NCBI GenBank assembly: GCA_027021705.1
Contig: JALUTT010000145.1
Span: forward strand, 77,213 to 141,212
Length of the DNA: 64,000 nucleotides
From: Anaerolineae bacterium
Lineage (GTDB): Bacteria; Chloroflexota; Anaerolineae; S140-20
Reading direction: 5' to 3'
Shown piece after piece: positions 8,875-43,364 of the stretch. Under the pieces are notes generated by a model. The model made no database searches and was not told where the DNA came from. It saw only the letters and a program-made list of their open reading frames with translations. The first letter of the stretch is position 1. Each line of letters begins with the position of its first letter. The position numbers were made by a program, and so were the translations under genes.

Positions 8875-8996
8875 GTGGCTATTCAGCCTACCCTCCCGCA
8901 GGTCACCGGTCGAGGGCGCTTTCGGCCCCGATGGGCTATTGGAAGCACGGTTTCGCGTCGGAAACACGCCTAACCTGCGGGAGGGTGGACAGTTAC
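8875..8996 (+). repeat. 122-bp palindromic dispersed element, family A, copy 1
   Basis: ACCCTCCCGCAGGT...ACCTGCGGGAGGGT inner inverted repeat, ends GGACAGTTAC; near-identical to copies at 20280, 22673, 24200 and 43243. Confidence 0.95.
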
Positions 8997-9021
8997 CTTC
9001 AAGGGCTCGGAAGCGGAGGGG

Positions 9022-10770
9022 ATGATGCTTGACGTGCGCTTGACGCCGGCGCAGGAACGGTTGGTGGACCAGGTACGCCAGTGGCTGGAAGCGTTGCAGG
9101 CCGCTCTGGTCGAGTTGAAGGCTACAGCGGAGGACCAGGAGGCCCTGGATCAGTCCTTGCGTCAGTTGGACGACTTCTTCCTCTTGGTTGTCGTGGGAGA
9201 GTTCAACGCGGGCAAGTCTGCCTTCATCAACGCGCTCCTGGGCCATCCCTTGCTGGAGGAGGGCGTTACCCCCACTACCCGGGCCATCCACTTGCTGCGC
9301 TACGGCGAGGAACCGGATCGCACCTTCCAGGATGGCCTCTGGATCCAGACGGCTCCTTTGGACCTGCTCCGCACCATCCACATTGTGGACACGCCGGGGA
9401 CCAACGCGGTCCTGCGGGAGCACGAGGCCATCACCGAGGCTTTCGTCCCCCGCAGCGATCTGGTTCTCTTCGTCACCTCGGCCGACCGCCCCTTCACCGA
9501 GAGCGAGCGCCGTTTCCTGGAGAAGGTACGGGCCTGGGGGAAGAAGATCCTCTTCGTCGTCAACAAGATTGACATCCTCCCCGATGAGGACGCCATCCAA
9601 AAGGTGACCGATTTCGTGGCCCAGAACGCTCAGCGGCTGCTGGGGGTGACGCCGGTGGTCTTTCCCATCTCCGCCCGGTGGGCGTTGCGGGCGCGGGAGA
9701 CGGGGGACCGGGCGGTGCTGGCCGGCAGCCGCTTCCCGGCCCTGGAGCGCTACATCCGGGAGACCCTGGACGAGGCCGGCCGCTTCCGCCTCAAGCTGCT
9801 CAACCCCCTGGGTGTGGGCCGACGACTGGCGAACCACTACCGGGAGGCGGTCGAGGCGGAGCTGGCCCTGCTGGCCGCCGACCGAGAGGCCATTGACGGC
9901 CTGGAGCGCCAACTGGCCCTCTACGAGGCCGACGTCCGACGGGATTTCCGCCTGCGGTTGAGCGAGATGGACAACTGGCTCCACGAGATGGAGAAGCGAG
10001 GGCGGCTCTTCTTCGACGAGACGCTGCGGCTGGCCCGGCTCTTCGACCTGATGAAGAAGGAACGGGTGCAGAAAGCCTTCGCCGAGCAGGTGGTTGCCGA
10101 TACGCCGGAGCGGATCGAGACGGCCATCGAGGACCTGATTGACTGGCTGGTGGACCAGGACCTGCGCCAATGGCAGGCGGTGACCGGTTACCTGGAGGCT
10201 CAGGTGAAGGCTTACGAAGACCGGCTGGTGGGGCCGACAGGGGCGCTGGGGGGAGCGCTGGCTCAGGACCGCCGCCGGCTGCTGGAATCGGTGGGGCAGG
10301 CAGCCCGCCGGACCATCGCCGGCTACGACCGGGAGGCGGAGGCGGCGATGCTGGCCGAGACGGCCCAGCGGGCCGTGGCCGAGTCGGCCCTCTTCGAGGT
10401 GGGGGCGGTGGGGTTGGGCACGTTGTTGACCTTGGTGCTGACCTCGACGGCGGCCGACCTGACGGGGCTGGCGGCGGCCGGCACCGTCGCCCTGATGGGC
10501 TTCCTGGTCATCCCCACCCGTCGGCGCCAGGCCAAGGCCCGGCTGGAGGAGAAGGTCGGGCAGTTGCGTCGCCGGCTGGTGCAGGAGCTGACCCACCACT
10601 TCGAGCGGGAGTTCAACCACAGCCTGCAGCGGATCCGCGACGCCGTGGCCCCTTACACCCGCTTCGTGCGGGCGGAGACGGCCCGGCTGGAGGCCCAACA
10701 GGCCCGCCTGGCCGAGATCGTGGAGGCGCTGCAGGCCCTGCAGGTCGAGGTGGAGCGGTGGAAGGGCTGA
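9022..10770 (+). CDS. Bacterial dynamin-like GTPase
   Basis: G1 GEFNAGKS, G2 PTT, G3 DTPG, G4 NKID; helical stalk and hydrophobic C-terminal paddle. Confidence 0.9.
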   Translation: MMLDVRLTPAQERLVDQVRQWLEALQAALVELKATAEDQEALDQSLRQLDDFFLLVVVGEFNAGKSAFINALLGHPLLEEGVTPTTRAIHLLRYGEEPDRTFQDGLWIQTAPLDLLRTIHIVDTPGTNAVLREHEAITEAFVPRSDLVLFVTSADRPFTESERRFLEKVRAWGKKILFVVNKIDILPDEDAIQKVTDFVAQNAQRLLGVTPVVFPISARWALRARETGDRAVLAGSRFPALERYIRETLDEAGRFRLKLLNPLGVGRRLANHYREAVEAELALLAADREAIDGLERQLALYEADVRRDFRLRLSEMDNWLHEMEKRGRLFFDETLRLARLFDLMKKERVQKAFAEQVVADTPERIETAIEDLIDWLVDQDLRQWQAVTGYLEAQVKAYEDRLVGPTGALGGALAQDRRRLLESVGQAARRTIAGYDREAEAAMLAETAQRAVAESALFEVGAVGLGTLLTLVLTSTAADLTGLAAAGTVALMGFLVIPTRRRQAKARLEEKVGQLRRRLVQELTHHFEREFNHSLQRIRDAVAPYTRFVRAETARLEAQQARLAEIVEALQALQVEVERWKG

Positions 10771-12326
10771 TGGGGGAGCAGGCTCCTGGGATGGTGCGCC
10801 GGGACTTCTGGCGGTTGGCCTGGGACTTGCTGGTTCACGACATCACCCTGGCCCTCTTGCTGGTCGGGGTGGCCTTGACCTCTTTGCTCCTCGCCGTGCT
10901 CCCTCAGATGCCGGCCGGCGGGCCGGCGGGTGACCCTTCGGCCTACGCCCGCTGGATCAGCGAGGTGACCCGCACCTGGGGGCGGTGGCGAGGGCTCCTG
11001 GAGGGGGCGGGGCTCTTCGCCATTGGGCGGGCGGTCTGGTTTCGCCTCCTCCTGGCGGCGACGGCCTTGAGCTTGGGGTTGCGGGGTGTCCGGGCGATCT
11101 GGCAGCTCTGGGAGGGGCGGCAGCCCGTCGCGTCGCCGCCGGCGGGCCTGCCCAGGGCATCGCTGGAGGGGACACCCTCGGCGCTGGCCCGGCGGCTCCG
11201 GCAACAGCGCTGGCGGCTCCGCACCGCCCCCGACGACGACACCCACACCCTCTACCTGGCCGACCGCTGGCCTTGGGGGCCGCTCGGCGGCCTGTTGGCC
11301 CATTGGGGGCCGCTCCTCTGGCTGGTCGGCCTGCTCCTCTGGGCGACCGGCGGCTGGGAGGTGCGGGAGATCCGGCTGGCGGCGGGCCAGGCAGCCGCGC
11401 TGGGGGGCGGGACCGACTACACGGTCGAGTTGCACGCCCTGGATGCGGCCTCCTCTCAGGCCCAAGTGATCCTCTGGAGTCGAGGGGTGGCGGTGGGGCA
11501 GGGAACCGTCGGGTCGGGACAGGTCCTGCGGACGGGGGGGCTGGTCGTGCGCCTGACGGCCGTCCGCTACGCCCTGGAGGTCGAGGGCACCACGGCCGAT
11601 GGGGAGCCGTTGCCCCTGCGCATCGCCGCCAGTGCCAACCCCGAGGAGCGCCTCTTCCTGCTCTTTGCGCCGGATCAGGTGGACCAGTACTTCGCAGCGC
11701 CGGAGGCGGAGTTCGCCGCCCAGGTCACGCTGACCGACCTGGAGGCGCCGGTGCCTCGGCTGCGCATCTACCGCAGCCGGACGGGAGCCCCCGTCTACGA
11801 CGCCCCGTTGCCGGAGGATGGGGTGGTCGCCCTCTCCAACGCCACCCTGCACTTCCGACCTACCCACTACGCCGTGCTGGAGGCGGTGCGCAACCCCGGC
11901 CTGCCCTGGCAAGGGGTTGGGCTGACCCTGACCGGGGTGGGGGTGCTGGGGATGCTCTTCTGGCCGGCCTGGCGTCTCTGGTTGCGGGAAGGTGGCACCG
12001 AGGGGGAAGAGGACGAGGCCCGGCCGCGCACCGAGGTGGTGGGCGAGCCGCCGGCGGCCTTGGTCTGGCTGGAGGGGTGGGCGGCCGGTGGGGAGGCGAC
12101 GCAGGGTTGGCGTCCTCGGCTCCTGGGGTGGGGGCCGTCCTTCTTGGTGGCCCTGGTCACGTTGGGGTTGCTGGGGGTGGCCGCCGGAGGGATGGTGACG
12201 CAGGGACGTTTCCCGGCCCGACCGATGGAGTGGGAGGCGTTGGCCGGGTGGCTCCTCCTGGTGGCAGGGGGGCTGTGTCGGAGGACACTGCTCGCTCGCA
12301 AATGGCGCCCCCCAGATGGTCTATGA
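10770..12326 (+). CDS. ResB/Ccs1-like cytochrome c biogenesis membrane protein (divergent)
   Basis: ATG overlaps the dynamin TGA. LAVLPQ, GLF.I..A.WFR.LL, G.LLAH.G.LL and RNPG.P...G follow the ResB layout. Confidence 0.65.
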   Translation: MGEQAPGMVRRDFWRLAWDLLVHDITLALLLVGVALTSLLLAVLPQMPAGGPAGDPSAYARWISEVTRTWGRWRGLLEGAGLFAIGRAVWFRLLLAATALSLGLRGVRAIWQLWEGRQPVASPPAGLPRASLEGTPSALARRLRQQRWRLRTAPDDDTHTLYLADRWPWGPLGGLLAHWGPLLWLVGLLLWATGGWEVREIRLAAGQAAALGGGTDYTVELHALDAASSQAQVILWSRGVAVGQGTVGSGQVLRTGGLVVRLTAVRYALEVEGTTADGEPLPLRIAASANPEERLFLLFAPDQVDQYFAAPEAEFAAQVTLTDLEAPVPRLRIYRSRTGAPVYDAPLPEDGVVALSNATLHFRPTHYAVLEAVRNPGLPWQGVGLTLTGVGVLGMLFWPAWRLWLREGGTEGEEDEARPRTEVVGEPPAALVWLEGWAAGGEATQGWRPRLLGWGPSFLVALVTLGLLGVAAGGMVTQGRFPARPMEWEALAGWLLLVAGGLCRRTLLARKWRPPDGL

Positions 12327-12371
12327 GCTGAGCACTCCTGGGCCTTTTGAACACACCTGTGGGGAGGGCGT

Positions 12372-12602
12372 GTGAATGCGCCGGCCATCTCTCGTGCCGT
12401 CTCTGCCTACGCAGCCCAGTTGAGCTTGGGAACCAGCGTGGTAGAGTATTTGAAGATCCCTGTTTGGGATCCGGCGAACTCCATTCATCGGCGATTGGCG
12501 CAACTGGCCAAGGAGATAACTGCAAGGGGGAAACCGCCTACGCAGGGTGAGATCCGCGAGGTAGACCGGCTGGCTATGAAAATCCTCGACCCGAGAGCGT
12601 GA
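12372..12602 (+). pseudogene. C-terminal fragment resembling a type IIG/N6-methyltransferase R-M protein
   Basis: NAPAI...EYLKIPVWDPANSIHRRLAQLA...EVDRLA resembles R-M fusion C-termini; no MTase motifs; AT-richer than flanks. Confidence 0.5.
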
Positions 12603-12654
12603 AGTGGACCTAGCACCTCTCGTCCGCACGACGCCGCGTGAACTTTAGCTTGAT

Positions 12655-12900
12655 ATGAAGACGGTGGTTGTGGAAGCAGAAGTGCAGGAGGACGGCCGGC
12701 TGCGCCTGGATACACCGGTGGACCTGCCGCCGGGCAGAGTTGAGGTCGTCCTGGTCATTCAGCCGACTGAGACCTCCGGTCCTCCTTACCCAACCTTGGC
12801 AGGGCGCTGGCGCGACCTGTTTCCTCTCGATTTCGACCTGGACCGTGCACTGCACGAGATCCGCCATGCATGGGAGCAGGAGTGGGAGAGCTTAGGGTAG
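12655..12900 (+). CDS. Small AbrB-like putative antitoxin (orphan)
   Basis: MKTVVVEAEVQEDGRLRLD.P.DLPPGRVEVVLV...L.EIR.AW pattern, typical of proteins preceding PIN toxins. Confidence 0.55.
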   Translation: MKTVVVEAEVQEDGRLRLDTPVDLPPGRVEVVLVIQPTETSGPPYPTLAGRWRDLFPLDFDLDRALHEIRHAWEQEWESLG

Positions 12901-14987
12901 GTGGACCGGGGCTAGAAAGAGCGCTGCTCTCCGTCGCCCGGCGGTTCTGGCCCGCCCTGGGGACGATGGAGGGGCGGGAACGGACCGTCGGGGTGGGGGA
13001 TGTGGTGGGCGTCCTCTACAGCCTCCCCCTGCTGCTGGGGGGCTTGGCCTGGTTGGCCGCCGCTACCGACCCGGCGGTCCTGCGGCAAGCCTGGCCAGTG
13101 CTCCTGCTCCTCTTCCTCCTCCTCTTCCTCTTCCAGCGGCTTGCGTTTTACCTCTTCGTCGAGATCAGGCCGGGGACCTTCGCCAACTTCGAGGGAACGC
13201 TGGGGGCCGTGGTCGTCTGGTCGGCGGCCCTCATCTTCGGCCCGACGGCCCTGTGGCCCCTGGTCCTCCGCCAGGCCATCGGCTTCGCCCGGCACTGGCG
13301 GCGGGCTGCCTCCCCCGGCCTGCGCTGGAACCTGGCCCGCAATGCGACGCTGGGGATCGCGGAGGCGGCCGTCAGCAGCCTGACCGCCCTGGCCCTCTAC
13401 GAACGCTGGGGCGGCCTCTTCCCCCTGCCGGGGCTGCGGCCCGATGCGGCCCTGCTGGCCCTCGCCGCGACCTTCATCCGCTTCCTGCTGGCGGCCCTGA
13501 TCTGGATGCCCTTGGTGGTCTACTTCGCCACCGCCCGGCCCCTGGCCCTGGCCGAGAGTGCGGCCGCGCTGAGGACCTTCGTCGGCTTCCTGGTGATGGC
13601 GCTGGGCTGGCCGGCCCTGGTGGATCCCTTCGCCATCCTGGCGGCGGGCCTCTACGCCCAGAGCGGGGTGGGGGCCTACCTCTTCTTCATCCTCGGGCTG
13701 CTCCTGACCAGCCTCTTGGCCCACCGGTTGAGCCAGGCCGTCGAGCGGAGCCAGCAGCGCTCCCGCGAGCTGGCGAAGCTGGAGGCCCTGGGCCGCGCGG
13801 TGATCAAGGCCCCGCCCGATGCCTCCACCCTGCCCGACCTCCTGCGCGAGCACGTCCCCGCCATGTTCCCGGAGAGCCGGATCGCCATCCGCCTCTTCCC
13901 CGACCGGACCCTCCTGCGCTATCCCCGGGGAGAGCCGCCGGTGGCCGACGCCGCCTGGACGTGGCTGGAGACGGCGGACGAGGCCCGTTGCTTCCTGCCG
14001 GGGGCGGCGCTGCCCTGGGACGGGCGGCCGACCGAGAGGGCGTTGGTGGTGGCCCCCATCCTCGACGTGGAGCGGGGGGAGCCCATCGGGGGGATCTGCC
14101 TGTCGCCGCTGCGGGAGCCCAAGGCGGCGGTGGGGCTGCTCCCGGCGGTGCAGGCCCTGGCCGCCCAGGTCGCCTCGGCCCTGCACGGTGCCGAGGTCTA
14201 CGCCCGGACCCTGGCCCACCAGCGGGTGGCTCAGGAGCTGGCCCTGGCGGGGAGGATCCAGGCCAGCTTCCTGCCGGGAGCCTTGCCGGAGGTCCCCGGG
14301 TGGCAGGTGGCGGCGGTGCTGGAGCCGGCCCGGGAGACCTCGGGCGACTTTTACGACTTCATCCCCCTGTCCGACGGGCGGTTGGGCCTCCTGGTCGCCG
14401 ACGTGGCCGACAAAGGGGTGGGGGCGGCCCTCTACATGGCCCTCAGCCGCACCCTCCTGCGCACCTACGCGGTCGAGTACGCGACCCGGCCCGAACGGGT
14501 GCTCGCCGCCGCCAACCGGCGCATCCTGGCCGACGCCCAGGCGGGCCTCTTCATCACCGTCTTCTACGGCGTGCTCGACCCGCCCAGCGGGAGGCTCACC
14601 TACGCCAGCGCCGGCCACAACCCGCCCTACCTCGTCCGGGCGGCCGGCGAAGCGGGGAGAGCGGTGCAGACCCTGCGGAGGACGGGCATCCCCCTGGGCA
14701 TCCTCGACGAAGGGACCTGGGAGCGGCGGACGGTCCACCTGGCCCCCGGCGACCTGCTGGTGCTCTATACCGACGGCGTCACCGAGGCCCAGAACGCCCA
14801 GGGGCGTTTCTTCGGCGAGGAGCGGCTGCTGGCGGTCCTGCAGGCCCATCGGGAACGCCCGGCCCAGGCGGTGTGCGACGCGCTGTTGACGGCGGTCCGG
14901 GAGTTCGCCGGGGGAGCCCCTCCGTCGGACGACATCACCCTGGTCGTCGTGGCACGACAGGGAGCGCGGAAGGAGGCAGAGACCTGA
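12870..14987 (+). CDS. Membrane-bound PP2C/SpoIIE (RsbU-like) phosphatase with multi-TM sensor and GAF-like region
   Basis: A.RIQASFLP, SGDFYD, VADVADKG..AAL.M, SAGHNPP, LYTDGVTEA, DDIT; start uncertain. Confidence 0.88.
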   Translation: MGAGVGELRVGGPGLERALLSVARRFWPALGTMEGRERTVGVGDVVGVLYSLPLLLGGLAWLAAATDPAVLRQAWPVLLLLFLLLFLFQRLAFYLFVEIRPGTFANFEGTLGAVVVWSAALIFGPTALWPLVLRQAIGFARHWRRAASPGLRWNLARNATLGIAEAAVSSLTALALYERWGGLFPLPGLRPDAALLALAATFIRFLLAALIWMPLVVYFATARPLALAESAAALRTFVGFLVMALGWPALVDPFAILAAGLYAQSGVGAYLFFILGLLLTSLLAHRLSQAVERSQQRSRELAKLEALGRAVIKAPPDASTLPDLLREHVPAMFPESRIAIRLFPDRTLLRYPRGEPPVADAAWTWLETADEARCFLPGAALPWDGRPTERALVVAPILDVERGEPIGGICLSPLREPKAAVGLLPAVQALAAQVASALHGAEVYARTLAHQRVAQELALAGRIQASFLPGALPEVPGWQVAAVLEPARETSGDFYDFIPLSDGRLGLLVADVADKGVGAALYMALSRTLLRTYAVEYATRPERVLAAANRRILADAQAGLFITVFYGVLDPPSGRLTYASAGHNPPYLVRAAGEAGRAVQTLRRTGIPLGILDEGTWERRTVHLAPGDLLVLYTDGVTEAQNAQGRFFGEERLLAVLQAHRERPAQAVCDALLTAVREFAGGAPPSDDITLVVVARQGARKEAET

Positions 14988-16117
14988 TGGACGACGTGGT
15001 CATTGTCGCAGCGGTGCGGACGCCGGTGGGGCGGGGGAAGCCCGATGGAGCGCTGAGCGCCATCCCGCCGGTCAAGCTGCTGGCCTTGGTGCTGCGGGAG
15101 GTCGTGCGCCGGGCCGGCGTCGAGCCGGGGCAGGTGGAAGATGTGATCGTCGGCTGCGTCACCCAGACGGGGGAGCAGGGGGCCAACATCGCCCGCCTGG
15201 CGGCCCTCTACGCCGGCTTCCCCGTGGAGGTGCCGGCCCTCAGCCTCAACCGGATGTGCGGCTCCAGCCAACAGGCGGCCCACTTCGCCGCCCAGGCCAT
15301 CCTGGCGGGCGATATGGAGCTGGTCATCGCCGCCGGCGTCGAGAGCATGAGCCGGGTGCCGATGGGGAGCGACTGGCCCTCCCAGTGGCCCGCCGACTTC
15401 CCCTACCCACTGGTCCATCAGGGGATCAGCGCCGAGATGATGGCCGAGCGGTGGGGGCTCTCGCGGGAGGAGCTGGACGACTTTTCTTTCGAGAGCCACC
15501 GGAAGGCGGCGGCGGCCACCCGGGCCGGCCACTTCCAGGCCGAGATCGTGCCGGTGGAGACGGAGCGGGGGGAGGTCACGGTGGACGAGGGGATCCGCTT
15601 CGAGCCCGATCGGGAGAAGATGGCGGCCCTGAAGCCGGTCTTCAAGGCGGACGGCGTCATCACGGCCGGCAACGCCAGCCAGATCTCCGACGGGGCGGCG
15701 GCCCTGCTGCTGGCCTCGGGGCGGCGGGCGGCCGCGCTGGGGCTGCGACCGCTGGCGGTGGTGCGGGCGCGGGCGGTGGTGGGGACCGACCCGGTGCTGA
15801 TGCTGGACGGGCCGATCCCGGCGACCCGGGCGGTGTTGCAGCGGGCGGGGCTTCGCCTGGCCGACATAGACAGCTTCGAGGTGAACGAAGCCTTCGCCTC
15901 GGTGCCCCTGGCCTGGGCCCGGGAACTCCGGCCCCCGATGGAGCGGGTGAACCCCGACGGCGGGGCCATCGCCCTGGGCCATCCCCTGGGGGCGACGGGG
16001 GCGCGGCTGATGACGACGCTGGCCCACCGGCTGGTCCGCACCGGAGCCCGCTATGGCCTGCAGACGATGTGCATCGGCCACGGCATGGCCACGGCGACGA
16101 TCCTGGAGCGGGCGTAG
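14987..16117 (+). CDS. Thiolase (acetyl-CoA C-acyltransferase)
   Basis: AVRTPVG, NRMCGSS, TAGNASQISDGA, NEAFA, GHPLGATG, CIGHG; ATG overlaps the upstream TGA. Confidence 0.95.
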   Translation: MDDVVIVAAVRTPVGRGKPDGALSAIPPVKLLALVLREVVRRAGVEPGQVEDVIVGCVTQTGEQGANIARLAALYAGFPVEVPALSLNRMCGSSQQAAHFAAQAILAGDMELVIAAGVESMSRVPMGSDWPSQWPADFPYPLVHQGISAEMMAERWGLSREELDDFSFESHRKAAAATRAGHFQAEIVPVETERGEVTVDEGIRFEPDREKMAALKPVFKADGVITAGNASQISDGAAALLLASGRRAAALGLRPLAVVRARAVVGTDPVLMLDGPIPATRAVLQRAGLRLADIDSFEVNEAFASVPLAWARELRPPMERVNPDGGAIALGHPLGATGARLMTTLAHRLVRTGARYGLQTMCIGHGMATATILERA

Positions 16118-16136
16118 GGCATGTCTGGAGACGCCG

Positions 16137-16165
16137 TTGTCGAAACCGCCTCGCTGTACTATAAT
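16137..16165 (+). promoter_or_regulatory. Sigma70-type promoter
   Basis: TTGTCG-17 bp-TATAAT. Confidence 0.65.
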
Positions 16166-16194
16166 CCTTAACAGACCTGGCGAGGAGAGGTGAG

Positions 16195-18549
16195 ATGCGT
16201 TACGACATCCAGGCGATGCCCAAAGTGCTGGCTGTCTACCTGCGGCTCTCCGAGTACCCCATCCTGGCCCGGAGGATTCGGGAGCGGATGCGCCAGGAGC
16301 TCTTTGCCCGGGGCATCATCAGCCGTGAGCAGTTCGAGGCCGAGGTGCGGGCCAAGGCCATCCACACTCAGAAGGAAGAGGGGCTCTCGAACCCCCTGGT
16401 CCAGGAGTCGGCCGAGGAGTGGGAGGAGCGGGTCCGCATCATCCGCGACCACCTCACCGACTTCTACTTTGCCCTGAACCTCCCCTATACCCTCTTCGAG
16501 GAGATCGTCCGCTCCGTCCTCAGCCCTCGGAGGCCGGGGGAGGAGATCATCCTGACCTTCAACCCCGAGCTGGCCCCCTGGGACATCCTCTTCGCCCAGG
16601 CCGAAGAGTACGAGAAGCTGCCGCCGGAGAAGAAGGCCAAGATCCACCATCACCTCCAGGAGATCATCGTCGTCCTGACCCGGGGGATGATCAGCGACCA
16701 GTTGGACTTCATCGCCCTGGCCCGGACCCATTTCAACATCTTTGACCTGAAGCGGATCTACCAGAGCCGCATCGGGCGGGGCAAGATCGGGGGCAAGGCG
16801 GCGGGGATCATGCTGGCCTACAAGATCCTGCGGGAGGATGATCCCGAGGACCCTCTGCCCATCAGTCAGCATGTCGCCGTCCCAGAGTCCTACTTCCTGG
16901 GGGCCGACGTCTTCTACGACTTCCTGGCCTACAACGAGCTCTTTCCCTACTTCAATCAGAAGTACAGGACGCGGGAGGAGATCGAGGCCAGCTACCCCCG
17001 GATTTACCACAACTTCATTCAGGGCCACTTCCCCGAGGATGTGGTGGAGCGGCTGGAGGCGCTGCTAGAGCGGGTGGGGAACCGTCCGCTGATCGTGCGC
17101 TCCTCCAGTCTGCTGGAGGACAACTTTGGCTACTCCTTCGCCGGCAAGTACGACAGCTTCTTCTGCCCCAACCAGGGGACGCCGGAGGAGAACCTGCGGG
17201 CGCTGCTCAACGCCATCCGCCGCGTCTACGCCAGCACCCTGAAGCCTGATGCTCTCTTCTACCGCCAGCAGGTGGGGCTGGTGGACTATGACGAACGGAT
17301 GGCCGTCCTGATCCAGCGGGTCGAGGGCTTCCAGTATGGGCGTTACTTCTTCCCGCCTGTGGCTGGCGTTGGGTTCAGCCGCAACCCCTTCCGCTGGAAC
17401 CGGCGCATCCGACGGGAGGATGGCTTCCTGCGGCTGGTCTGGGGGCTGGGGACCCGGGCGGTGGACCGGGTGGCCAACGACTACCCCCGCATCGTCGCCC
17501 TCAGCCACCCTCAGCTTCGCCCGGAGATGACGGCGGCGAAGATCAAGAAGTACTCCCAGCGCTTTGTGGACGTGATAGACCTGGAGGAGAACCGCTTCAA
17601 GACCCTGCCTGTCGCCGAGGTAATCTCCAGCGACTATCCGGGCATCGAGTTGCTGGCCTCGGTGGACGAGGGGGACTACCTGCGGCCCCTCCACTTCCGG
17701 GAGCCGAACCTGCCGCCCCGGTCGCTGGTGCTCACTTTCGACCGCCTGCTTCGGGAGAAGAGCTTTACCACCCTGATGCGGGCGATCCTGAAGAAGCTGG
17801 AGTGGGCCTACGGCCGGCCGGTGGACATCGAGTTCGCCCTGGAGATTGTGCCGGATTACCCGCACCCTCGGTTCGTCGTTCACCTGCTCCAGTGCCGGCC
17901 CCTGAGCAGTTGGGAGCCCCAGCGGGTCTACCAGCTCCCTCAGCACGTCTCGGAGCGGGACATCGTCTTCGTCGCCACCCGCCTGGTGCCTGAGGGGGTT
18001 GTCTCCCGGGTCGAGTACGTGGTCTACGTGGATCCCCACAAGTACGACGCCATCCCGGACCACGCGACCAAGTACGCCATCGGTCGGGTCATCGGACGCT
18101 TGAACAAGAAGCTGGAGGGCCACCCCTACATCTTGATCGGACCGGGCCGGTGGGGGAGTTCCAACATTGACCTGGGGGTGAAAGTGACGTATGCGGACAT
18201 CTACAACGCTTCGATGCTGGTCGAGGTCGCCTTCGCCGGCGCCGAGGGGACGCCCGAGGTCTCCTACGGCACCCACTTCTTCCAAGACCTGATCGAGGCC
18301 AACATCTATCCACTGCCCCTCTACCCCGACGAGGATGGCGCGGTCTTCAACCGGACCTTCTTCGAGACCTCGCCCAACGTGCTGACGCGGTTCCTGCCGG
18401 AGGATGCCCGGTACGCCGACTACGTTCGGGTCATTGACGTCCGGGAGGTGGCGGGCGGTCGGCTGTTGGAGGTGGTGATGAGCGCCGATGAGGAGCGGGC
18501 GGTGGCCTACCTACGCCGCTATCCCGATGATGGACGCGATGGGAGGTGA
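16195..18549 (+). CDS. PEP/pyruvate-binding (PPDK_N ATP-grasp) domain protein
   Basis: IGGKAAG, VRSSSLLED...FAGKY, GLGTRAV, DIEFA, LLQCRP, GPGRWGS, SYGTHFFQDL; no phospho-His swivel domain seen. Confidence 0.85.
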   Translation: MRYDIQAMPKVLAVYLRLSEYPILARRIRERMRQELFARGIISREQFEAEVRAKAIHTQKEEGLSNPLVQESAEEWEERVRIIRDHLTDFYFALNLPYTLFEEIVRSVLSPRRPGEEIILTFNPELAPWDILFAQAEEYEKLPPEKKAKIHHHLQEIIVVLTRGMISDQLDFIALARTHFNIFDLKRIYQSRIGRGKIGGKAAGIMLAYKILREDDPEDPLPISQHVAVPESYFLGADVFYDFLAYNELFPYFNQKYRTREEIEASYPRIYHNFIQGHFPEDVVERLEALLERVGNRPLIVRSSSLLEDNFGYSFAGKYDSFFCPNQGTPEENLRALLNAIRRVYASTLKPDALFYRQQVGLVDYDERMAVLIQRVEGFQYGRYFFPPVAGVGFSRNPFRWNRRIRREDGFLRLVWGLGTRAVDRVANDYPRIVALSHPQLRPEMTAAKIKKYSQRFVDVIDLEENRFKTLPVAEVISSDYPGIELLASVDEGDYLRPLHFREPNLPPRSLVLTFDRLLREKSFTTLMRAILKKLEWAYGRPVDIEFALEIVPDYPHPRFVVHLLQCRPLSSWEPQRVYQLPQHVSERDIVFVATRLVPEGVVSRVEYVVYVDPHKYDAIPDHATKYAIGRVIGRLNKKLEGHPYILIGPGRWGSSNIDLGVKVTYADIYNASMLVEVAFAGAEGTPEVSYGTHFFQDLIEANIYPLPLYPDEDGAVFNRTFFETSPNVLTRFLPEDARYADYVRVIDVREVAGGRLLEVVMSADEERAVAYLRRYPDDGRDGR

Positions 18550-18557
18550 TCTCGGAG

Positions 18558-18824
18558 ATGTCAGCTTCAGACGTGGGAGCCGAAAAGGGTCTGACGGTCT
18601 ACGGCACCACCTGGTGTCCCAGCGTGCGGCGTGTCCGGCGTTTCCTGGACCGCCGTCAGATCCCGTACCGGTGGGTGGACATTGACGAAGACGCCGAGGG
18701 GCGGGCCTTCGTCGAACAAGTCAACAACGGGATGCGCAGCGTGCCCACCATCGTCTTTGAGGATCGTTCGATCCTGGTGGAGCCCAGCATCGCCGAGTTG
18801 GCGGCGAAGCTGGGGGTGGAATAA
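18558..18824 (+). CDS. Glutaredoxin/NrdH/mycoredoxin-like protein
   Basis: VYGTTWCPSV, WVDIDED, NNGMRSVPTI, LVEPS. Confidence 0.8.
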   Translation: MSASDVGAEKGLTVYGTTWCPSVRRVRRFLDRRQIPYRWVDIDEDAEGRAFVEQVNNGMRSVPTIVFEDRSILVEPSIAELAAKLGVE

Positions 18825-18827
18825 GAC

Positions 18828-18924
18828 ACCCTCCCGCAGGTCCTCCCTACGGCCTGGATCGCGTCGTAGGCTGCCTCCGACAGGCTACGGCGGTCACCGG
18901 GCCTCGCAGGGCCTGCGGGAGGGT
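18828..18924. repeat. Family A-related element: same inner stem, different interior
   Basis: ACCCTCCCGCAGG (18828) ... CCTGCGGGAGGGT (ends 18924), followed by AACGGTT. Confidence 0.8.
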
Positions 18925-18961
18925 AACGGTTTTGGAAGGCCCTAAATGCCCGCGACAACCC

Positions 18962-18990
18962 TTGACAGAGTCGGCCGTTGAGGGTATAAT
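18962..18990 (+). promoter_or_regulatory. Consensus sigma70 promoter for tRNA-Gly
   Basis: TTGACA-17 bp-TATAAT. Confidence 0.9.
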
Positions 18991-19002
18991 ATTATCGCCT
19001 TT

Positions 19003-19074
19003 GCGGGTGTAGTTCAGTGGTAGAACGTCAGCTTCCCAAGCTGAATGTCAGGGGTTCGAGTCCCCTCACCCGCT
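19003..19074 (+). tRNA. tRNA-Gly(CCC), CCA end not encoded
   Basis: Acceptor stem GCGGGTG/CACCCGC, anticodon arm TCAGC-TTCCCAA-GCTGA, T-arm GGTTCGAGT. Confidence 0.96.
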
Positions 19075-19188
19075 CTTTTTCTTCGACCGCATCTCTGGAT
19101 AACTGCTCCTGACAACCCAGCGCTTTAGCTGGGTTATCGTTTGCCTGGTTGAGTCATTTGTCGTTGCCGAAGAAGGGAGAAAGCCAAA

Positions 19189-20085
19189 ATGTTTCGAGAG
19201 CGCATCCGTGAAAGGTATGAGAAGCTGACGCCCAGCTTCCGCCGCATTGCGGATTACCTGCTGGACAATTACCAGGAAGCGGCTTTCCTGACCGGCAGCC
19301 AGTTGGCCAAGAAGCTTCGCGTGGACCCTGCAACGGTGGTTCGCTTTGCCCAGCGGCTGGGCTACGACGGCTATCCGGATCTGGCGCGGGATGTGCGGGC
19401 GTTGGTCCAGGAGGAACTGCAGGTCCAGGAGCCTGTGCTGGAAGCACGGCCCGAGACACCGGCAGAGCTGTTGCGGGCCATCCTGCTGAACGAGGCTCAG
19501 AACCTGGAGCGCCTGGGCCGTTCCCTCACCGATTCCGTGGTCGAGGAGATCGTCCAGGCGATCCTGAAGGCCAAGCGCATCCTGGTCGTGGGTCAAGGTC
19601 CCCTCGCGGGAGAGGCAGCGGCGGTAGCCCATCGGTTGAACATCCTGGGGCTCTCGGCCAAGGCCCTGAATATGGACCTGGTCAACGTCTCGATGGCGCT
19701 GCAGGAAGTCGGTGAGGGCGATCTCGTCCTGGGGATCGAGATCAGCGAGTACGCTTTCGGCAGTGTGGATGCCACGAACCTGCTGCGCACGGCGGCCCAA
19801 CAGGGGGCCAAGACCGTCTCCATCACCGGGCGGGCCTCTGCCCCTCTGGCCCGAGCTGCCGACATCACCGTGGCTGTGCCCACCGCCTCCATCGTCGGCG
19901 TTCCCTCTACCGGCAGCCTCACCGCCTTCCTGAACGCCCTGCTTCTGGTGATCGCCAAAGAGCGGCTGAGTGAGCAGAAGGCTCTGGCCAAGAGCTTCGA
20001 GCAGTTGGTTCACCGGCTGATGCAAGGACGCTACGAGTTGGAGCAGCAGGTCCTTCGGGAGGCTGAGCGAGAGGGCGGATCGTAG
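19189..20085 (+). CDS. MurR/RpiR family transcriptional regulator
   Basis: LTPSFRRIADYLL...LAKKL.VDPATVVRFAQRLGYDGY plus SIS domain (SITG...PLARAADI). Confidence 0.9.
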   Translation: MFRERIRERYEKLTPSFRRIADYLLDNYQEAAFLTGSQLAKKLRVDPATVVRFAQRLGYDGYPDLARDVRALVQEELQVQEPVLEARPETPAELLRAILLNEAQNLERLGRSLTDSVVEEIVQAILKAKRILVVGQGPLAGEAAAVAHRLNILGLSAKALNMDLVNVSMALQEVGEGDLVLGIEISEYAFGSVDATNLLRTAAQQGAKTVSITGRASAPLARAADITVAVPTASIVGVPSTGSLTAFLNALLLVIAKERLSEQKALAKSFEQLVHRLMQGRYELEQQVLREAEREGGS

Positions 20086-20110
20086 CCCTTTCGGCGACGC
20101 CGTTGGTATG

Positions 20111-20150
20111 CCCTCCCACAGGTTCTTGGAGTCTGTGGGAGGGTTTTTGT
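20111..20150 (+). terminator. Rho-independent terminator
   Basis: CCCTCCCACAG...CTGTGGGAGGG stem followed by TTTTTGT. Confidence 0.75.
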
Positions 20151-20240
20151 TAGCGGGAAGAAGCGTTGGGTTGACTGCCGTGGACTCCCGAAGTAAGGGG
20201 CTCGACCCAGGAGGTATTCGCGCCAAGGGCTTCTTGTCAT

Positions 20241-20270
20241 TTGACGTTTCCCCAACCTCGATGCTATAAT
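20241..20270 (+). promoter_or_regulatory. Sigma70-type promoter for the rph operon
   Basis: TTGACG-18 bp-TATAAT with TG extension. Confidence 0.7.
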
Positions 20271-20279
20271 CCAGCCCGT

Positions 20280-20401
20280 GTATCTAGTCAGCCTACCCTC
20301 CCGCAGGTCACCGGTCGAGGGCGCTTTCGGCCCCGATGGGGTATTTGAAGCACGGTTTCGCGTCGGAAACGCGCCTAACCTGCGGGAGGGTGAACAGTTA
20401 C
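20280..20401 (+). repeat. 122-bp element, family A, copy 2
   Basis: GTATCTAGTCAGCCT-ACCCTCCCGCAGGT...ACCTGCGGGAGGGT-GAACAGTTAC. Confidence 0.95.
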
Positions 20402-20486
20402 CAGCCCGTTGTGAACGCCTGTCCGGAGGTGGACGATGGCGGTGAGGTCGGATGTCTGGACGCTGATGTGATGTATGGAGGGATGG

Positions 20487-21197
20487 ATGCGCCCCGATGG
20501 TCGTGCTGCCGATGAGTTGCGCCCCGTCCGTTTCACCCTCGACTACGTGCGCTACCCCGAGGGGTCGGTGTTGGTGGAGATGGGTGAGACGAAGGTGTTG
20601 TGCAACGTCACTGTGGAGGAACGGGTTCCCTCTTGGCGGGCCGGCAGCGGCGCCGGCTGGCTGACGGCCGAGTACGCTCTCCTCCCCCGCAGCACCCACC
20701 AGCGCACGCCCCGGGAGGTGGGTGGGCTGCGGGGTCGCACTCAGGAGATCCGCCGCTTCATCGGGCGTAGTCTGCGGGCTGCTGTGGACCTGGAGCGGCT
20801 GGGGGAGCGGATGCTCATCGTGGACTGTGACGTCCTCCAGGCCGACGGCGGCACCCGGACGGCGGCGGTCACCGGCGGGTACGTCGCCGTCGCCCTGGCC
20901 CTACGCCGACTGGCCTGGGCAGGTGTGCTTCCGCCCGACCTGTTGCGCCCTCCGGTGGCTGCCGTCAGCGTCGGTGTGGTCAACGGACAGCCCTGTTTGG
21001 ATCTCTGCTATGCTGAGGATGCCGTCGCCCAGGTGGATCTGAACGTGGTGATGGATGTAGAGGGGCGCTTCATCGAAGTGCAGGGGACGGCGGAGCGAAG
21101 CCCCTTCTCCCGCGAGGTGCTGGACCGGTTGCTCCATCTGGCCGCCCGGGGTGTCGAGGAACTGATCCGCCGCCAGCAGGAAGCCTTGAGCCAATGA
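20487..21197 (+). CDS. rph: Ribonuclease PH
   Basis: RPDGR..DELRP, GWLTAEYALLPRST, GRTQEIRRFIGRSLR, DCDVLQADGGTRTA, EVQGTAE. Confidence 0.96.
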   Translation: MRPDGRAADELRPVRFTLDYVRYPEGSVLVEMGETKVLCNVTVEERVPSWRAGSGAGWLTAEYALLPRSTHQRTPREVGGLRGRTQEIRRFIGRSLRAAVDLERLGERMLIVDCDVLQADGGTRTAAVTGGYVAVALALRRLAWAGVLPPDLLRPPVAAVSVGVVNGQPCLDLCYAEDAVAQVDLNVVMDVEGRFIEVQGTAERSPFSREVLDRLLHLAARGVEELIRRQQEALSQ

Positions 21198-22639
21198 GCC
21201 GTCTCGGAGCCCTCACCCGGGGACAGCGTCTGATCCTGATTCTGCTGAGCATAGGGCTCGTGGGGGTGTTGGCGGCGCTGGTGATCCTGGCGACCCAGGC
21301 GGGCCACTTCACCCTGATGCCGGTGGCGACGGTGGCGCAGCCGACCCTCCCGTCGCTCCCCTCACCCCTTCAGCCGCCCTCTCCTTCGCCCACCCTCCCG
21401 GCGACGCCGTCCCCCACGCCTGAGACGGCGGGCGAACTGGCAGTGGCCCGTCGCGCCGAAGCGGTGCGGGAGGCGAGCGCCCGGCTGCGGGAGTTGCCCT
21501 TCCGTCAGCGCGTTCCCCTTACCTTCCTGAGCCAGGAAGCGATGGCGGAGGACCTGGCCGATTGGCTGGCAGCCCAGGCGCTCTGGCAGGAGGCCTGGCA
21601 GTTCTACGTCGTCCTGGGATTGCTCCCTCCCCAAGAGAAGGCGGAAGTTTCCGTCTTGGGGGAGCGAGCGGCCCGCTGGATCGTCGCCTTCTACCGACCT
21701 GGGGAAGGCCAGCTCTACCTACGCCGTTTTCAAGGACCGCCCGGCGAGGAGAAGGAAGCCCTGGTCGCCCACGCCTACACCCACGCCCTGCAGGATCAGC
21801 ACTTCGACCTGGCGGCCTACCTGGCCGAGGCAGACAGTGCCGACGCGGCTCGGGCCCGGCTCGCCCTGCCCGAGGGGGAGGCGACCTGGGTGATGGCCCG
21901 CTACCTAAACGCCCAGGCCGGCCTGACCTTCACCGAGCGGGTGGTGGACGAGCTGATCGGTCCCCTGGTGGCCGGTGAGAACCCTGCCTTCAGCGGTCAG
22001 GAAGCCCAGGCGTTGGCTCCTATCCTCCGCTTCCCTTACGCCAACGGCGCCCGCTTCGTGGCCCGGCTGCTGGAAGAGGGGTGGTGGCCCGCCCTCAACG
22101 ATGCCTATCGTCGCCCCCCCCGTTCCACTGAAGAGGTCCTGCACCCGGAGAAGTACCTGGCCGGCGACGACCCACCCCGTTCCGTCTCCCTGCCCGACCT
22201 CCAGCCGGTCTTGGGAGAGGGATGGGCGCTGGTGGAGCAGGACGTGATGGGGGAACTCGTCCTGCGGACCGTCCTGACGCACACCCTCCAGGACGGGGCT
22301 TGGGCGGAGCGGGCGGCCGCCGGGTGGGGCGGCGACCGGTACCAGCTCTGGCGGGATGAGGACGGGAACCTGCTCTTGCTGGCCCGCACCCTCTGGGACA
22401 GCGAGGCGGACGCGGCGGAGTTCGCCGAGGCCTACGAGGCCGTCATCGCCCTCCGTCTGTCGGGGGCCTTTCGAGTCGTGCCCATCGGAGCCCCTCCCCA
22501 AGGGCAGTGGTGGCGTAGAGAGGGGCTGACCGCTTTCCTGGATCGGCAGGGAGAGGTTGTTACCTTTGCTTGGGGACGCGACACCCCGGCGATGGTGCGG
22601 CTCCTGGCCGCCCTCTTCCTAGAGGACCGTCGCCCCTGA
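21194..22639 (+). CDS. Membrane-anchored zincin-like surface protein (Hvo_1808-like) with altered HExxH
   Basis: N-terminal TM, Pro/Ser/Thr linker, HAYTHALQDQHFD...EGEA, FPY..G..FV, PPRSTEEVLHPEKY, AAAGWGGD, WDS..DA.EF. Confidence 0.75.
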   Translation: MSRLGALTRGQRLILILLSIGLVGVLAALVILATQAGHFTLMPVATVAQPTLPSLPSPLQPPSPSPTLPATPSPTPETAGELAVARRAEAVREASARLRELPFRQRVPLTFLSQEAMAEDLADWLAAQALWQEAWQFYVVLGLLPPQEKAEVSVLGERAARWIVAFYRPGEGQLYLRRFQGPPGEEKEALVAHAYTHALQDQHFDLAAYLAEADSADAARARLALPEGEATWVMARYLNAQAGLTFTERVVDELIGPLVAGENPAFSGQEAQALAPILRFPYANGARFVARLLEEGWWPALNDAYRRPPRSTEEVLHPEKYLAGDDPPRSVSLPDLQPVLGEGWALVEQDVMGELVLRTVLTHTLQDGAWAERAAAGWGGDRYQLWRDEDGNLLLLARTLWDSEADAAEFAEAYEAVIALRLSGAFRVVPIGAPPQGQWWRREGLTAFLDRQGEVVTFAWGRDTPAMVRLLAALFLEDRRP

Positions 22640-22672
22640 CCCCCGGCAGGGTTCGATGCGCTTTCATCCTGC

Positions 22673-22794
22673 GTAACTGTTCACCCTCCCGCAGGTTAGG
22701 CGCGTTTCCGACGCGAAACCGTGCTTCCAATGGCCCATCGGGGCCGAAAGCGTCCTCGACCGGTGACCTGCGGGAGGGTAGGCTGAATAGACGC
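22673..22794 (-). repeat. 122-bp element, family A, copy 3
   Basis: Reverse-complement copy: GTAACTGTTCACCCTCCCGCAGGT...GGGAGGGTAGGCTGAATAGAC. Confidence 0.95.
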
Positions 22795-22836
22795 CATCCT
22801 GCACCCTATCCCGACGAGGTTGAGGAGGAGAAGACG

Positions 22837-23397: not shown

Positions 23398-23457
23398 GCC
23401 CCTGGGGCCGCGTGATCTACGACGCGGGAAGATGACCCTTCACACGGAGCTACGTCT

Positions 23458-24199: not shown

Positions 24200-24320
24200 G
24201 TAACCGTTCACCCTCCCGCAGTTAGGCGCGTTTCCGACGCGAAACCGCGCTTCCAATAGTCCATCGGGGCTGGAAACGCCCTCGACCGGTGACCTGCAGG
24301 AGGGGAGATTGAGGGAGGGC
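24200..24320 (-). repeat. 122-bp element, family A, copy 4 (most diverged)
   Basis: GTAACCGTTCACCCTCCCGCAG...GACCTGCAGGAGGG; 1-bp deletion and a decayed outer end. Confidence 0.9.
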
Positions 24321-24342
24321 TTCGGGGCTGGGATAGGGGGAG

Positions 24343-42138: not shown

Positions 42139-43209
42139 TCACGCGATGAACGCATCTATGCGCTCCAGCAGGGCCTCGATCTCACCCTGGGTCACGTCGC
42201 CCATATGGGCGATGCGGAAGGTCTGGCCCTTGAGACGACCGTAGCCGTTGGAGATGAGCATCCCGTGGCGGCGCAGGAAGCGGTTGAGCGCCTCCACGTC
42301 TATCCCCCGGGTGTTGGTGATGGCGGTGACGGTGGGGCTCTCGTAGCCGGCCTCGGCGAAGAGGGCGAAGCGCTGGCGGGCCCACTCCTGCACCCGCCGG
42401 GCCAGGGCGGCGTGGCGGGCGAAGCGGGCTTCCAGCCCCTCGGCCAGGATGCGGTCGAGCTGTCGGTCGAGGGCGAAGAGGTGGGGGATGGCCGGGGTGG
42501 CCGGCGTCTGGTTGCGGGCCAGGTACTTCTCGAAGACGAGGAAGTCGAAGTAGTACCCCCGGTGGGCAACCTCTTTGGCCCGCGCCAGGGCCCGGTCGGA
42601 GACGGCGGCCAGGGCGATGCCGGCGGGCAGGGCCAGCGCCTTCTGGGAAGAGGTCAGGCAGACGTCAATGCCCCACCGGTCCACCTCGATGGGCGTCCCA
42701 CCCAGGGAGCTCACCGCGTCCACCAGCAACAGCGTCTCCGGGTAGTCGGCCACCACCTGGGCGATCTCCGGCAGGGGGTTCAGAAGGCCGGTGCTCGTCT
42801 CGTTGTGGACGAGGGCGACGGCGTCGAAGGGGCCGTCCCGGAGGGCTTCGGCGATCTGGTCCGGGCGGATGGCCTTCCCCCAGGGCGCTTCGACGACGAC
42901 GACCTCTTTGCCGTTGGCCCGGCTGACCTCGGCCCAGCGCTGGCCGAAGGCCCCGTTGACGGCGTGGAGGATGCGTCGGCCCTCCCGGACGCAGTTCCGG
43001 CTGGCGGCCTCCTGCAGGCCGGTGCCGGAGGAGGTGGAAACGTAGACGCGGTGCCGGGTGGCGAAGAGCTGGCGCAGGCGGGGCTGGAGTCGGGCGAAGA
43101 GGTCGGCAAATTCCGGCGTGCGGTGGCCGATCTGGGGCTGACTCAGCGCGGCCAGGACGTCGGGATGGACCTGGGTGGGGCCGGGGATGAAGAGTCGCGG
43201 CACGGCCAT
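42139..43209 (-). CDS. Class V PLP aminotransferase (AGT/serine-pyruvate type; probable phosphoserine aminotransferase)
   Basis: FIPGPT, GHR..EF, HNETSTG, VDAVSS, SSQKAL, FRIAHMG; start ATG 43209. Confidence 0.9.
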   Translation of the reverse strand: MAVPRLFIPGPTQVHPDVLAALSQPQIGHRTPEFADLFARLQPRLRQLFATRHRVYVSTSSGTGLQEAASRNCVREGRRILHAVNGAFGQRWAEVSRANGKEVVVVEAPWGKAIRPDQIAEALRDGPFDAVALVHNETSTGLLNPLPEIAQVVADYPETLLLVDAVSSLGGTPIEVDRWGIDVCLTSSQKALALPAGIALAAVSDRALARAKEVAHRGYYFDFLVFEKYLARNQTPATPAIPHLFALDRQLDRILAEGLEARFARHAALARRVQEWARQRFALFAEAGYESPTVTAITNTRGIDVEALNRFLRRHGMLISNGYGRLKGQTFRIAHMGDVTQGEIEALLERIDAFIA

Positions 43210-43242
43210 GCCTTCTCCTCTTGGGGCGGTAGTACCTTGGGG

Positions 43243-43364
43243 GTATCTATTCAGCCTACCCTCCCGCAGGTCACCGGTCGAGGGCGCTTTCAGCCCCGAT
43301 GAGCTATTTGAAGCACGGTTTCGCGTCGGAAACGCGCCTAACCTGCGGGAGGGTAAGCAGTTCT
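43243..43364 (+). repeat. 122-bp element, family A, copy 5
   Basis: GTATCTATTCAGCCT-ACCCTCCCGCAGGT...ACCTGCGGGAGGGT-AAGCAGTT. Confidence 0.95.

Follow-up and report, generated by a model that had tools for sequence, protein, structure and literature searches.

Many dispersed 122-bp miniature inverted-repeat elements in an Anaerolineae genome, with ends like those of IS66-family insertion sequences

A 64,000-nt stretch of the genome of an Anaerolineae bacterium (GCA_027021705.1; positions 77213-141212 of contig C145 in the assembly that we label G000), hereafter called the window, carries five copies of a 122-bp non-coding repeat that we regard as a miniature inverted-repeat transposable element, or MITE. 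The assembly comprises 5.19 Mb in 183 contigs, has a G+C content of 66% and is 94.9% complete. The five copies were initially placed by a first-pass annotation of the window, and their coordinates and strands are borne out both by alignment over approximately 122 bp and by an independent repeat finder, which recovered them as direct and inverted families with 88-100% identity. Similarity among the aligned copies falls away sharply beyond approximately 122 bp. Four of the copies are 92-100% mutually alike, and copy 4, in which a tip has decayed, is 88-89% alike to these. As the same annotation noted, no transposase gene lies adjacent to any copy, and the gene neighbourhood listing agrees that two copies are sense and three are antisense relative to the downstream gene. 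The copies, the methods that support each of them and their neighbours are as follows.

8875..8996, plus strand: MITE copy 1 (alignment, repeat finder, flank listing); on the left a Lon-like protease gene on the minus strand, on the right a dynamin-family GTPase gene.
20280..20401, plus strand: MITE copy 2 (alignment, promoter-like-site scan, flank listing); on the left the gene for an RpiR-family regulator, on the right that for RNase PH.
22673..22794, minus strand: MITE copy 3 (alignment, repeat finder, flank listing); on the left the gene for an unknown 481-aa protein, on the right that for an HD-domain protein.
24200..24320, minus strand: MITE copy 4 (alignment, repeat finder, flank listing); on the left a GT2 glycosyltransferase gene, on the right the gene for a PMT_2-family protein (ATG at 24343).
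43243..43364, plus strand: MITE copy 5 (alignment, flexible-end duplication search, flank listing); on the left a class-V aminotransferase gene on the minus strand, on the right the gene for a PMT-family protein.

It had been reported that no target-site duplication (TSD) is visible at these copies, which proved incorrect: copies 1, 2, 3 and 5 are each flanked by 8-bp direct repeats. Copy 1, in a divergent spacer and 25 nt 5' of the ATG (9022) of the dynamin-family GTPase gene, lies between CCTCAAGG (8867-8874) and CTTCAAGG (8997-9004). The duplication at copy 2, which follows a promoter-like site and precedes the RNase PH gene (open reading frame, or ORF, from 20475), is a perfect repeat of CAGCCCGT at 20272-20279 and 20402-20409, and that at copy 3 is an equally perfect repeat of CATCCTGC at 22665-22672 and 22795-22802. 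Copy 3 is separated by 33 nt from the stop of the preceding gene and by 42 nt from the likely start of the HD-domain gene (ATG at 22837); like copy 4, it is located within a spacer of co-directional genes. Copy 5 is found upstream of the class-V aminotransferase gene (minus strand, start at 43209), and its tips are 1 and 2 nt short, such that the element proper spans 43244-43362 and is flanked by two copies of CTTGGGGG (43236-43243 and 43363-43370). Copy 4 is older and decayed, with one tip that is unrecognisable and no duplication remaining.

The nested palindrome described in the first-pass annotation is present in all its parts, namely an imperfect outer inverted repeat (9/11), a perfect 14-bp inner repeat (ACCCTCCCGCAGGT) and a 5-nt bulge (GCCTA). 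We set the ends of the element by aligning 165 copies from the genome together with their flanks, wherein conservation collapses outside GTATCTATTCAG...GAACAGTTAC; the left terminus is GTATCTATTCAG and the right terminus is GTAACTGTTCAC. The outer and inner palindromes are one terminal inverted repeat of 25-30 bp, composed of GTAWCTRTTCA, GCCTA (on one side only) and CCCTCCCGCAGGT, and approximately 70 bp of filler separates the two ends. At 122 bp, the element falls below the limit of approximately 300 bp that applies to MITEs, and it also has the terminal inverted repeats and non-coding character of this group. It lies between gene calls, and an ORF is impossible in a hairpin repeat of this length.

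The annotation had anticipated many copies genome-wide. A profile built from the five window copies was used to search all G000 contigs with nhmmer, and a match was considered near full length if it extended from model position 10 or lower through position 112 or higher. This expectation is confirmed: the 5.19 Mb yield 199 matches, of which 165 qualify as near full length, and the remaining 34 are truncated, lack one tip, are nested or represent internal-deletion derivatives. Divergence from the consensus among the 165 copies has a median of 3% and forms a single peak at 2-4%, and this median points to one fairly recent burst in the G000 lineage. The MITE makes up approximately 0.4% of the genome, or approximately 0.8% if a sister family (F2, see below) is added.

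Statistical evidence for the duplication is extensive. In a clean-ended set of 86 copies, defined by tips that each have no more than one mismatch to the consensus, 43 exhibit a perfect 8-bp TSD and 25 match at 7/8 positions, and the perfect-match rate in a control where flanks were re-paired between copies is 0.0001. The mean number of identical flank positions is 6.91/8, versus 2.18 in the re-paired controls. This signal is confined to a length of 8, with none at lengths of 4, 6, 7, 9, 10 or 12. When the ends are allowed to shift by a few bases, 110 of the 165 copies reach at least 7/8, versus 5.7% in swapped-flank controls, and these comprise 74 copies with duplications at the exact consensus ends and 36 in which 1-10 tip bases are missing. 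The sites also share a base composition, with an A+T fraction of 0.75/0.72 just outside the duplication, 0.25/0.27 at its first/last base and 0.61/0.72 on the far side, which corresponds to a preferred target of W-W/S-N6-S/W-W. The A+T-rich flanks were seen again in 37 elements from other genomes. Terminal inverted repeats together with a regular 8-bp TSD point to cut- or copy-and-paste movement by a DDE transposase, and thus a mechanism that differs from those first suggested. With 165 dispersed copies, these same features uphold the more general suggestion that this is a non-autonomous, MITE-like mobile element.

Several individual copies deserve mention. Tip bases are missing despite an intact duplication in the 36 copies noted above (for example C170:2708, C9:5648, C50:47628 and window copy 5), for which imprecise joining, abortive excision or decay are possible causes. 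At G000:C77:90932-91190, two copies are arranged head to tail only 7-15 nt apart, and a head-to-tail joint (20401 to 20280) was encountered in runs X1 and X5 of another metagenome, where the depth of the family is far above that of the flanking genes. A solo MITE end at G000:C147:7271-7700, which is a truncated copy, abuts a stretch that resembles a structured RNA gene.

Full copies are absent from 40 relatives, three of them from the same family, in keeping with a recent gain; in one genome of this family (G001), a short derivative that arose by deletion shares the right end of the element. The comparison with relatives proposed in the first-pass annotation revealed no shared occupancy at orthologous sites, and the family presents the MITE pattern of many dispersed copies (165 full copies on many contigs) that are absent in relatives. 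The inner-repeat 14-mer, in contrast with its reversed control (0-1 occurrences per genome), is widespread: it is found in 59 of 201 genomes of the class, G000 included, and occurs 507 times in G000, 307 times in G140 and 116 times in G021. A scan of public genomes yielded at least 97 stretches with members of this superfamily. Among the matches listed, all are by title metagenome-assembled genomes (MAGs) of Anaerolineae, Anaerolineales, Thermoflexales or Chloroflexota, except for one 814-bp contig that is binned elsewhere. Again among the matches listed, 68 elements have both arms, and 46 of these have a duplication of at least 7/8 (35 perfect); the lengths of these 46 are 120-124 bp in 26 cases, and 64-70, 96, 114-116 or 131-153 bp in the rest. 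Elements across the class share an architecture that consists of an 11-nt tip, an insert of five bases at one of the two ends, the 14-bp stem, an interior of approximately 70 bp, a second stem and a second tip. In consensus these elements end in GTAACTGCTCAGCCTACCCTCCCGCAGGTT and AACCTGCGGGAGGGTGAGCAGTTAC, and perfect 8-bp duplications flank many of them. The interiors constitute at least 15 unrelated families, and 13 of 15 are 69-73 nt long.

Homology between the ends of the MITE and those of IS66-family insertion sequences (ISs) was also observed directly, as were the copies, duplication, target profile and distribution described above. One published account describes IS66 as having a 20-30-bp inverted repeat that starts with GTAAGCG, along with 8-bp direct repeats (PMC11946415). 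The right end of the MITE (GTAACTGTTCAC) has the GTAA start, the left end (GTATCTATTCAG) departs from it by one change at base 4, and the class consensus is GTAACTGCTCAG; 8-bp direct repeats are found at insertion sites of both the G000 copies and elements from across the class. A second source gives GTGACTACTCAGCA and GTAACTGCTCAGCA as the ends of ISDge4, a single-ORF element of Deinococcus geothermalis that belongs to the ISBst12 group and is likewise flanked by an 8-bp repeat (PMC12898284). The second of these ends matches the class-wide MITE end GTAACTGCTCAGCC at 13/14 positions. The MITE shares with the ISBst12 group the starts GTAAC/GTGAC...CTCAG, the 8-bp TSD and a repeat whose 25-30 bp falls within the 20-30 bp of the family. 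It differs in having no transposase gene, in its length (122 bp versus approximately 1.5 kb), in five extra bases at one end, and in the drifted tips of the G000 copies (GTATCTATTCAG and GTAACTGTTCAC).

Closer counterparts exist within the class. An IS66-like transposase query from G140 has relatives in 55 of 401 class genomes, and many of the 29 resulting loci that we inspected are single-ORF elements ending in GTAACTGCTCAGSC, GTAACTACTCAGCC, GTAACCGTTCAG or GTAACTATTCAGG. The ends of two such single-gene elements are GTAACTGCTCAGCCTGC (locus L080) and GTAACTATTCAGG (L096), and the class MITE consensus opens with 15 bases (GTAACTGCTCAGCCT) that are identical to the end of the IS66-like element in L080. 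Some of these same-class elements, including L081, L094 and L096, have clean 8-bp duplications, and in a relative on a plasmid of the cyanobacterium Chroococcidiopsis, the ends are GTAACCGTTCAAGGGG and GTAATTGTTCACGGGG and the duplication is GTGAAAAC. Further 1.5-kb single-ORF elements at G161:C81 (144-1668) and G198:C45, together with fragments in G125, read inward as GTAACTACCTACCCTCCTGCGAG, with GTAACTRCCTACCC at the other end; the ends to be compared with those of the MITE are GTAACTGCCTACCC... and GTAACTACCTACCCTCCTGCGAG. The protein encoded in G161 scores 291.7 bits against NF033517 (cut-off 180) and also matches PF03050 and DUF6444. Since the MITEs of G140 and G092 end in GTAACTGCCTACCCTCCCGCAGGTT, which resembles these G161-type IS ends, the inner stem of the MITE is part of the terminal repeat of this type of IS. 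Overall, MITE tips match IS66-family ends over 12-16 nt.

Given these similarities, we believe, with a probability of roughly 0.88, that the MITE was built from the two ends of a single-gene ISBst12-like IS66-family IS and that an IS66-type transposase acts on it in trans. We infer the identity of this enzyme from the ends on which it would act. An IS66-family DDE transposase made elsewhere would bind both MITE ends, and the element would then be inserted at a staggered cut whose repair yields the 8-bp duplication. Insertions within genes would be lost by selection, and copies would consequently accumulate in spacers, mostly upstream of genes.

A number of observations weigh against this proposal. 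No cognate transposase was found in the 94.9%-complete G000 assembly, where three ISBst12-like protein queries matched nothing, and where the only IS66-family piece recovered in a PF03050 search is a 1419-bp contig (C134). This contig holds part of a canonical TnpC and, as read by eye, the end of a TnpB-like frame, and is of the canonical TnpB-TnpC type; its ends are not assembled, its G+C content is 61.5% versus 66% for the genome, and its TnpC has relatives in 4 of 201 class genomes, G000 included, at an E-value of 1e-20. The near-complete genome of one relative (G072) has 43 full-length MITEs and only a remnant IS66 match. Moreover, the MITE end agrees with the G161-type IS end at approximately 20/25 positions rather than exactly, clean 8-bp duplications are absent at the IS copies inspected in G161, G198 and G125, and co-occurrence with MITEs is weak, in that, of the three genomes with the stem-bearing IS, G161 contains the 14-mer 24 times whereas G198 and G125 lack it. 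Finally, no empty site was seen, as public contigs break at every copy and none bridges one. Specifically, the public contigs of four runs that were placed on window positions 8000-25500 stop inside every MITE copy; the strains in runs X2 and X3 also carry copies 1-3.

Other searches for a partner gave similar outcomes. IS66-like protein queries from G140, G021, G073, G178, G123 and G161 uncovered nothing new in G000, elements of the G161/G198/G125 type were not found there, and no matches to PF01610 or PF12762 were obtained in this genome. Searches of G000 with PF01609 gave three matches on small contigs, and those with PF00872 gave two full-length IS256-family transposase genes (C136 and C130) and one weak match. 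Outside the known copies, MITE-tip searches revealed eight solo tips, none beside a transposase, and 17 stem pairs in G000 are spaced 400-6000 bp apart. There is no IS in the region of G072 that carries a solo MITE end, and a DNA search of plasmid and phage records returned no match. Repeats often go unassembled, and the transposase partner is either unassembled, lost or supplied from outside. If an unassembled IS66-family element resides in this organism, its ends are expected to be GTAAC..CCTACCCTCCCGCAGG.

The placement of the copies was assessed with our own rough codon-usage gene caller, which predicts 3278 genes covering 81% of G000. Of the 165 full copies, 161 are intergenic: 111 are in co-directional, 43 in divergent and seven in convergent spacers, one is inside a gene call and three are at contig edges. 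The numbers expected from spacer length are 113.6, 22.6 and 24.8, respectively (p 1.8e-7), and the copies are therefore enriched in divergent and depleted in convergent spacers. We considered whether the density of target motifs might cause this upstream bias and rejected the idea, as it predicts 110.6/25.1/25.3 (p 2e-6); 73% of target-motif sites lie within genes, which the MITE avoids. Overall, its preference for sites that are upstream of genes and flanked by A+T is mild. In co-directional spacers, 70 copies are oriented opposite to the genes and 41 in the same direction (p 0.008), and relative position inside these spacers shows no bias (61 vs 50). Copies lie at a median of approximately 35 nt from the next start codon, although starts called from the longest ORF make this value approximate. 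With the same rough gene calls, this distance is within 60 nt for approximately 77 of the 111 copies in co-directional spacers.

The suggestion in the first-pass annotation that the element favours promoter-proximal sites holds in part. Apart from the divergent enrichment and convergent depletion, a -10-like hexamer within 13 nt points into the MITE at 21 copies in G000 and away from it at five. However, 37 elements from other genomes do not repeat this pattern, with five such hexamers pointing in and four away. In the window, copies 1, 2 and 5 do each separate a promoter-like -10 box from a gene, as had been stated. Two features close to copy 2 are relevant.

20241..20270, plus strand: promoter-like site, TTGACG-18-TGnTATAAT, with 11/12 consensus matches (a scan result, and not evidence of function).
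20110..20144, plus strand: terminator-like hairpin with a stem (CCCTCCCACAGG / TCTGTGGGAGGG) near-identical to that of the MITE, followed by a T-run.

The promoter-like site ends 9 nt before copy 2, and the transcript is thus expected to start in the duplicated target or in the first bases of the element. By eye, copy 5 ends 6-8 nt after a minus-strand TATAAT (43376-43371), and copy 1 is 19 nt after a weaker pair, TTGCCC-17-TACACT. The consensus scan detected no promoter-like site before copies 3 and 4 and no sigma-70-like site inside the window copies. Copy 2 and the called start of RNase PH are separated in part by a short upstream reading frame (20436-20471; ATG, 10 codons, TGA), which has a good ribosome-binding site. 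The terminator-like hairpin, located after the RpiR-family gene, may be a decayed deletion derivative of the MITE. A general role of short derivatives as terminators was considered and dismissed, in that only one of 40 stem-only derivatives in G000 has a T-run.

Folded as a single strand, the element reaches -58.1 kcal/mol on the plus strand (z -3.8 versus shuffles) and -56.8 kcal/mol on the minus strand (z -4.7). A copy located between a promoter and a start codon, or within an operon, would be co-transcribed and would add a hairpin of approximately -58 kcal/mol to the RNA, and the stability or processing of the mRNA could change as a result, as has been described for MITEs of other bacteria. 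We infer such effects on expression, including the reshaping of 5' untranslated regions, from position alone.

Other sources of mobility can be weighed against an IS66-type enzyme. Two full-length IS256-family transposase genes are present in G000 on the small contigs named above, IS256 makes 8-9-bp duplications, and no ISBst12-like transposase is in the assembly, all of which would be in keeping with movement of the MITE by this or another 8-bp-duplicating DDE family. Nevertheless, the inverted repeats at the ends of these contigs are unrelated to the MITE ends, whose tips and inner stem instead match IS66-family element ends, and we consider this origin quite improbable. The first-pass annotation suggested a REPIN-like element, perhaps moved as folded single-stranded DNA by an HUH enzyme (Y1/RAYT), or one moved by a tyrosine recombinase, and an IS200/IS605-type element would belong to the same group of explanations. 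Although the MITE is a long hairpin and G000 has two Y1_Tnp genes, terminal inverted repeats and a regular 8-bp TSD do not fit such movers; HUH single-strand transposition (IS200/IS605, RAYT) is not known to give either. REPINs are defined by copies that flank a RAYT (Y1) gene and by the lack of target duplication. We looked for MITE copies bracketing a RAYT gene, as had been proposed, and found that both Y1 genes are flanked by other, unrelated palindromic repeats, each RAYT-like gene (G000:C14:16109-16453 and G000:C49:17825-18169) lying within its own tandem palindromic array. Palindromes derived from IS200/IS605 have no inverted-repeat ends and no duplication, and they insert beside a fixed tetra- or pentanucleotide. 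The MITE has both of the former, and its flanks show only the W-W and S preferences, with no conserved tetranucleotide alongside. Membership in either group is accordingly rejected, and movement by an HUH enzyme or tyrosine recombinase seems to us hardly credible.

A different type of alternative accepts the MITE origin and holds that copies are kept because the transcribed hairpin serves as a cis-acting RNA module, whether as a leader or intercistronic stabiliser, as a site of processing or as an attenuator. The divergent and convergent counts (43 and 7), which target-motif density does not explain, the orientation bias (70 opposite, 41 same) and the proximity of many co-directional copies to start codons could be read in this manner, as could the observation that stems change in approximately 1-2% of G000 copies versus approximately 3-4% for the interior; tips change in 16-26%. 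Lower stem variability can also be produced by detection bias, however, and both orientations are common. Interior sequence varies freely between genomes, and across 15 interior families from class genomes we saw no clear structural constraint, with a median fold z of -0.93 and only 2/15 below -2 relative to mononucleotide shuffles. In the Rfam search called for by the first-pass annotation, no known family was matched and the whole window gave only a tRNA at gathering score; at E-values up to 5, nothing at window positions 18780-20460 overlaps the element or the F2 copy. Considering also that other genomes failed to show the -10-box pattern, we judge retention as an RNA module to be unlikely. 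A related and still rather doubtful proposal is that the superfamily seeks, or is retained at, the first bases past promoters, where it would provide a portable hairpin in the leader, able to adjust how stable the mRNA is or how well it is translated. Compatible with this proposal are the orientation bias and the upstream bias beyond a simple target motif, the spacer of approximately 69-73 bp in 13/15 unrelated interior families, and the fact that near-complete genomes without a cognate transposase still keep dozens to hundreds of copies. Such persistence would imply that the copies are mobilised by an enzyme from outside, brought for example by plasmids or phages.

For an element with IS66-type ends that moves in trans, the best functional analogy is with the Correia/NEMIS elements. 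In a published review, these elements of Neisseria, along with RUP and ERIC, are described as small, high-copy, non-coding sequences with inverted-repeat ends that are found mostly just upstream of genes; such elements are co-transcribed as hairpins, and RNase III cuts Correia transcripts at the repeats (PMC10969869). The MITE resembles the Correia/NEMIS elements in its size, copy number, non-coding nature, inverted-repeat ends and upstream placement. It differs in its transposase family, has no sequence relation to them, lacks detectable sigma-70-like promoters inside the window copies, and is known here from DNA alone. Correia elements duplicate TA.

A search of the literature on MITEs in Anaerolineae and Chloroflexota, and on ISBst12 or IS66 with MITEs, gave no description of this family among the papers listed, those on Chloroflexota being judged by title. 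Both the MITE family and the class-wide superfamily appear undescribed, and the kind of element is a well-known one, namely selfish DNA. We regard it as a clear example of a large MITE burst driven by IS66-family ends. Many of the contig breaks and ‘structured’ spacers in MAGs of Anaerolineae are accounted for by these elements, and we recommend that they be masked before searches for motifs or noncoding RNAs; the copies also offer a ready marker for strain typing. With many copies in 5' leaders, a Correia-like effect on expression is testable in a phylum whose gene regulation is almost unstudied, and the leader-hairpin proposal, if true, would amount to a Correia-like regulatory layer in Anaerolineae.

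The sister family F2 has 194 matches in G000, 168 of which are near full length, and combines the CCCTCCCGCAGG stem with a different interior of approximately 70 nt. Examples outside the window are at G000:C2:67307-68056 and G000:C162:4546-5465. Some F2 copies form head-to-tail arrays with a period of approximately 111 bp, and some are enclosed in larger hairpin shells whose outer repeats are different ones (GCTACCTGACC..., CAGGGCTTTTCAGCGC...). The window has one copy, between a glutaredoxin gene and a tRNA promoter.

18824..18929, minus strand: F2 copy, with the CCCTCCCGCAGG stem as in the MITE and a different interior.

Additional repeats are evident in the window. A third family, which is a CACGAAT-rich palindrome (CCGTCCACGAA...TTCGTGGACGG), is located at 26842-26946, 27691-27769 and 43414-43518; one of its copies is approximately 50 nt from MITE copy 5, and similar sequence is also found beside MITE fragments on contigs C25 and C56. 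Seven diverged 159-nt repeats, spaced 174-207 nt, occupy positions 194-1465. Tandem heptanucleotide arrays (GCCCCTT/GCAACTT and AGACGCA-type units) are present at 44648-44731 and 54328-55055 in spacers of the glycosyltransferase region, and between 44900 and 48540 the PMT-family genes are duplicated with approximately 71-75% identity.

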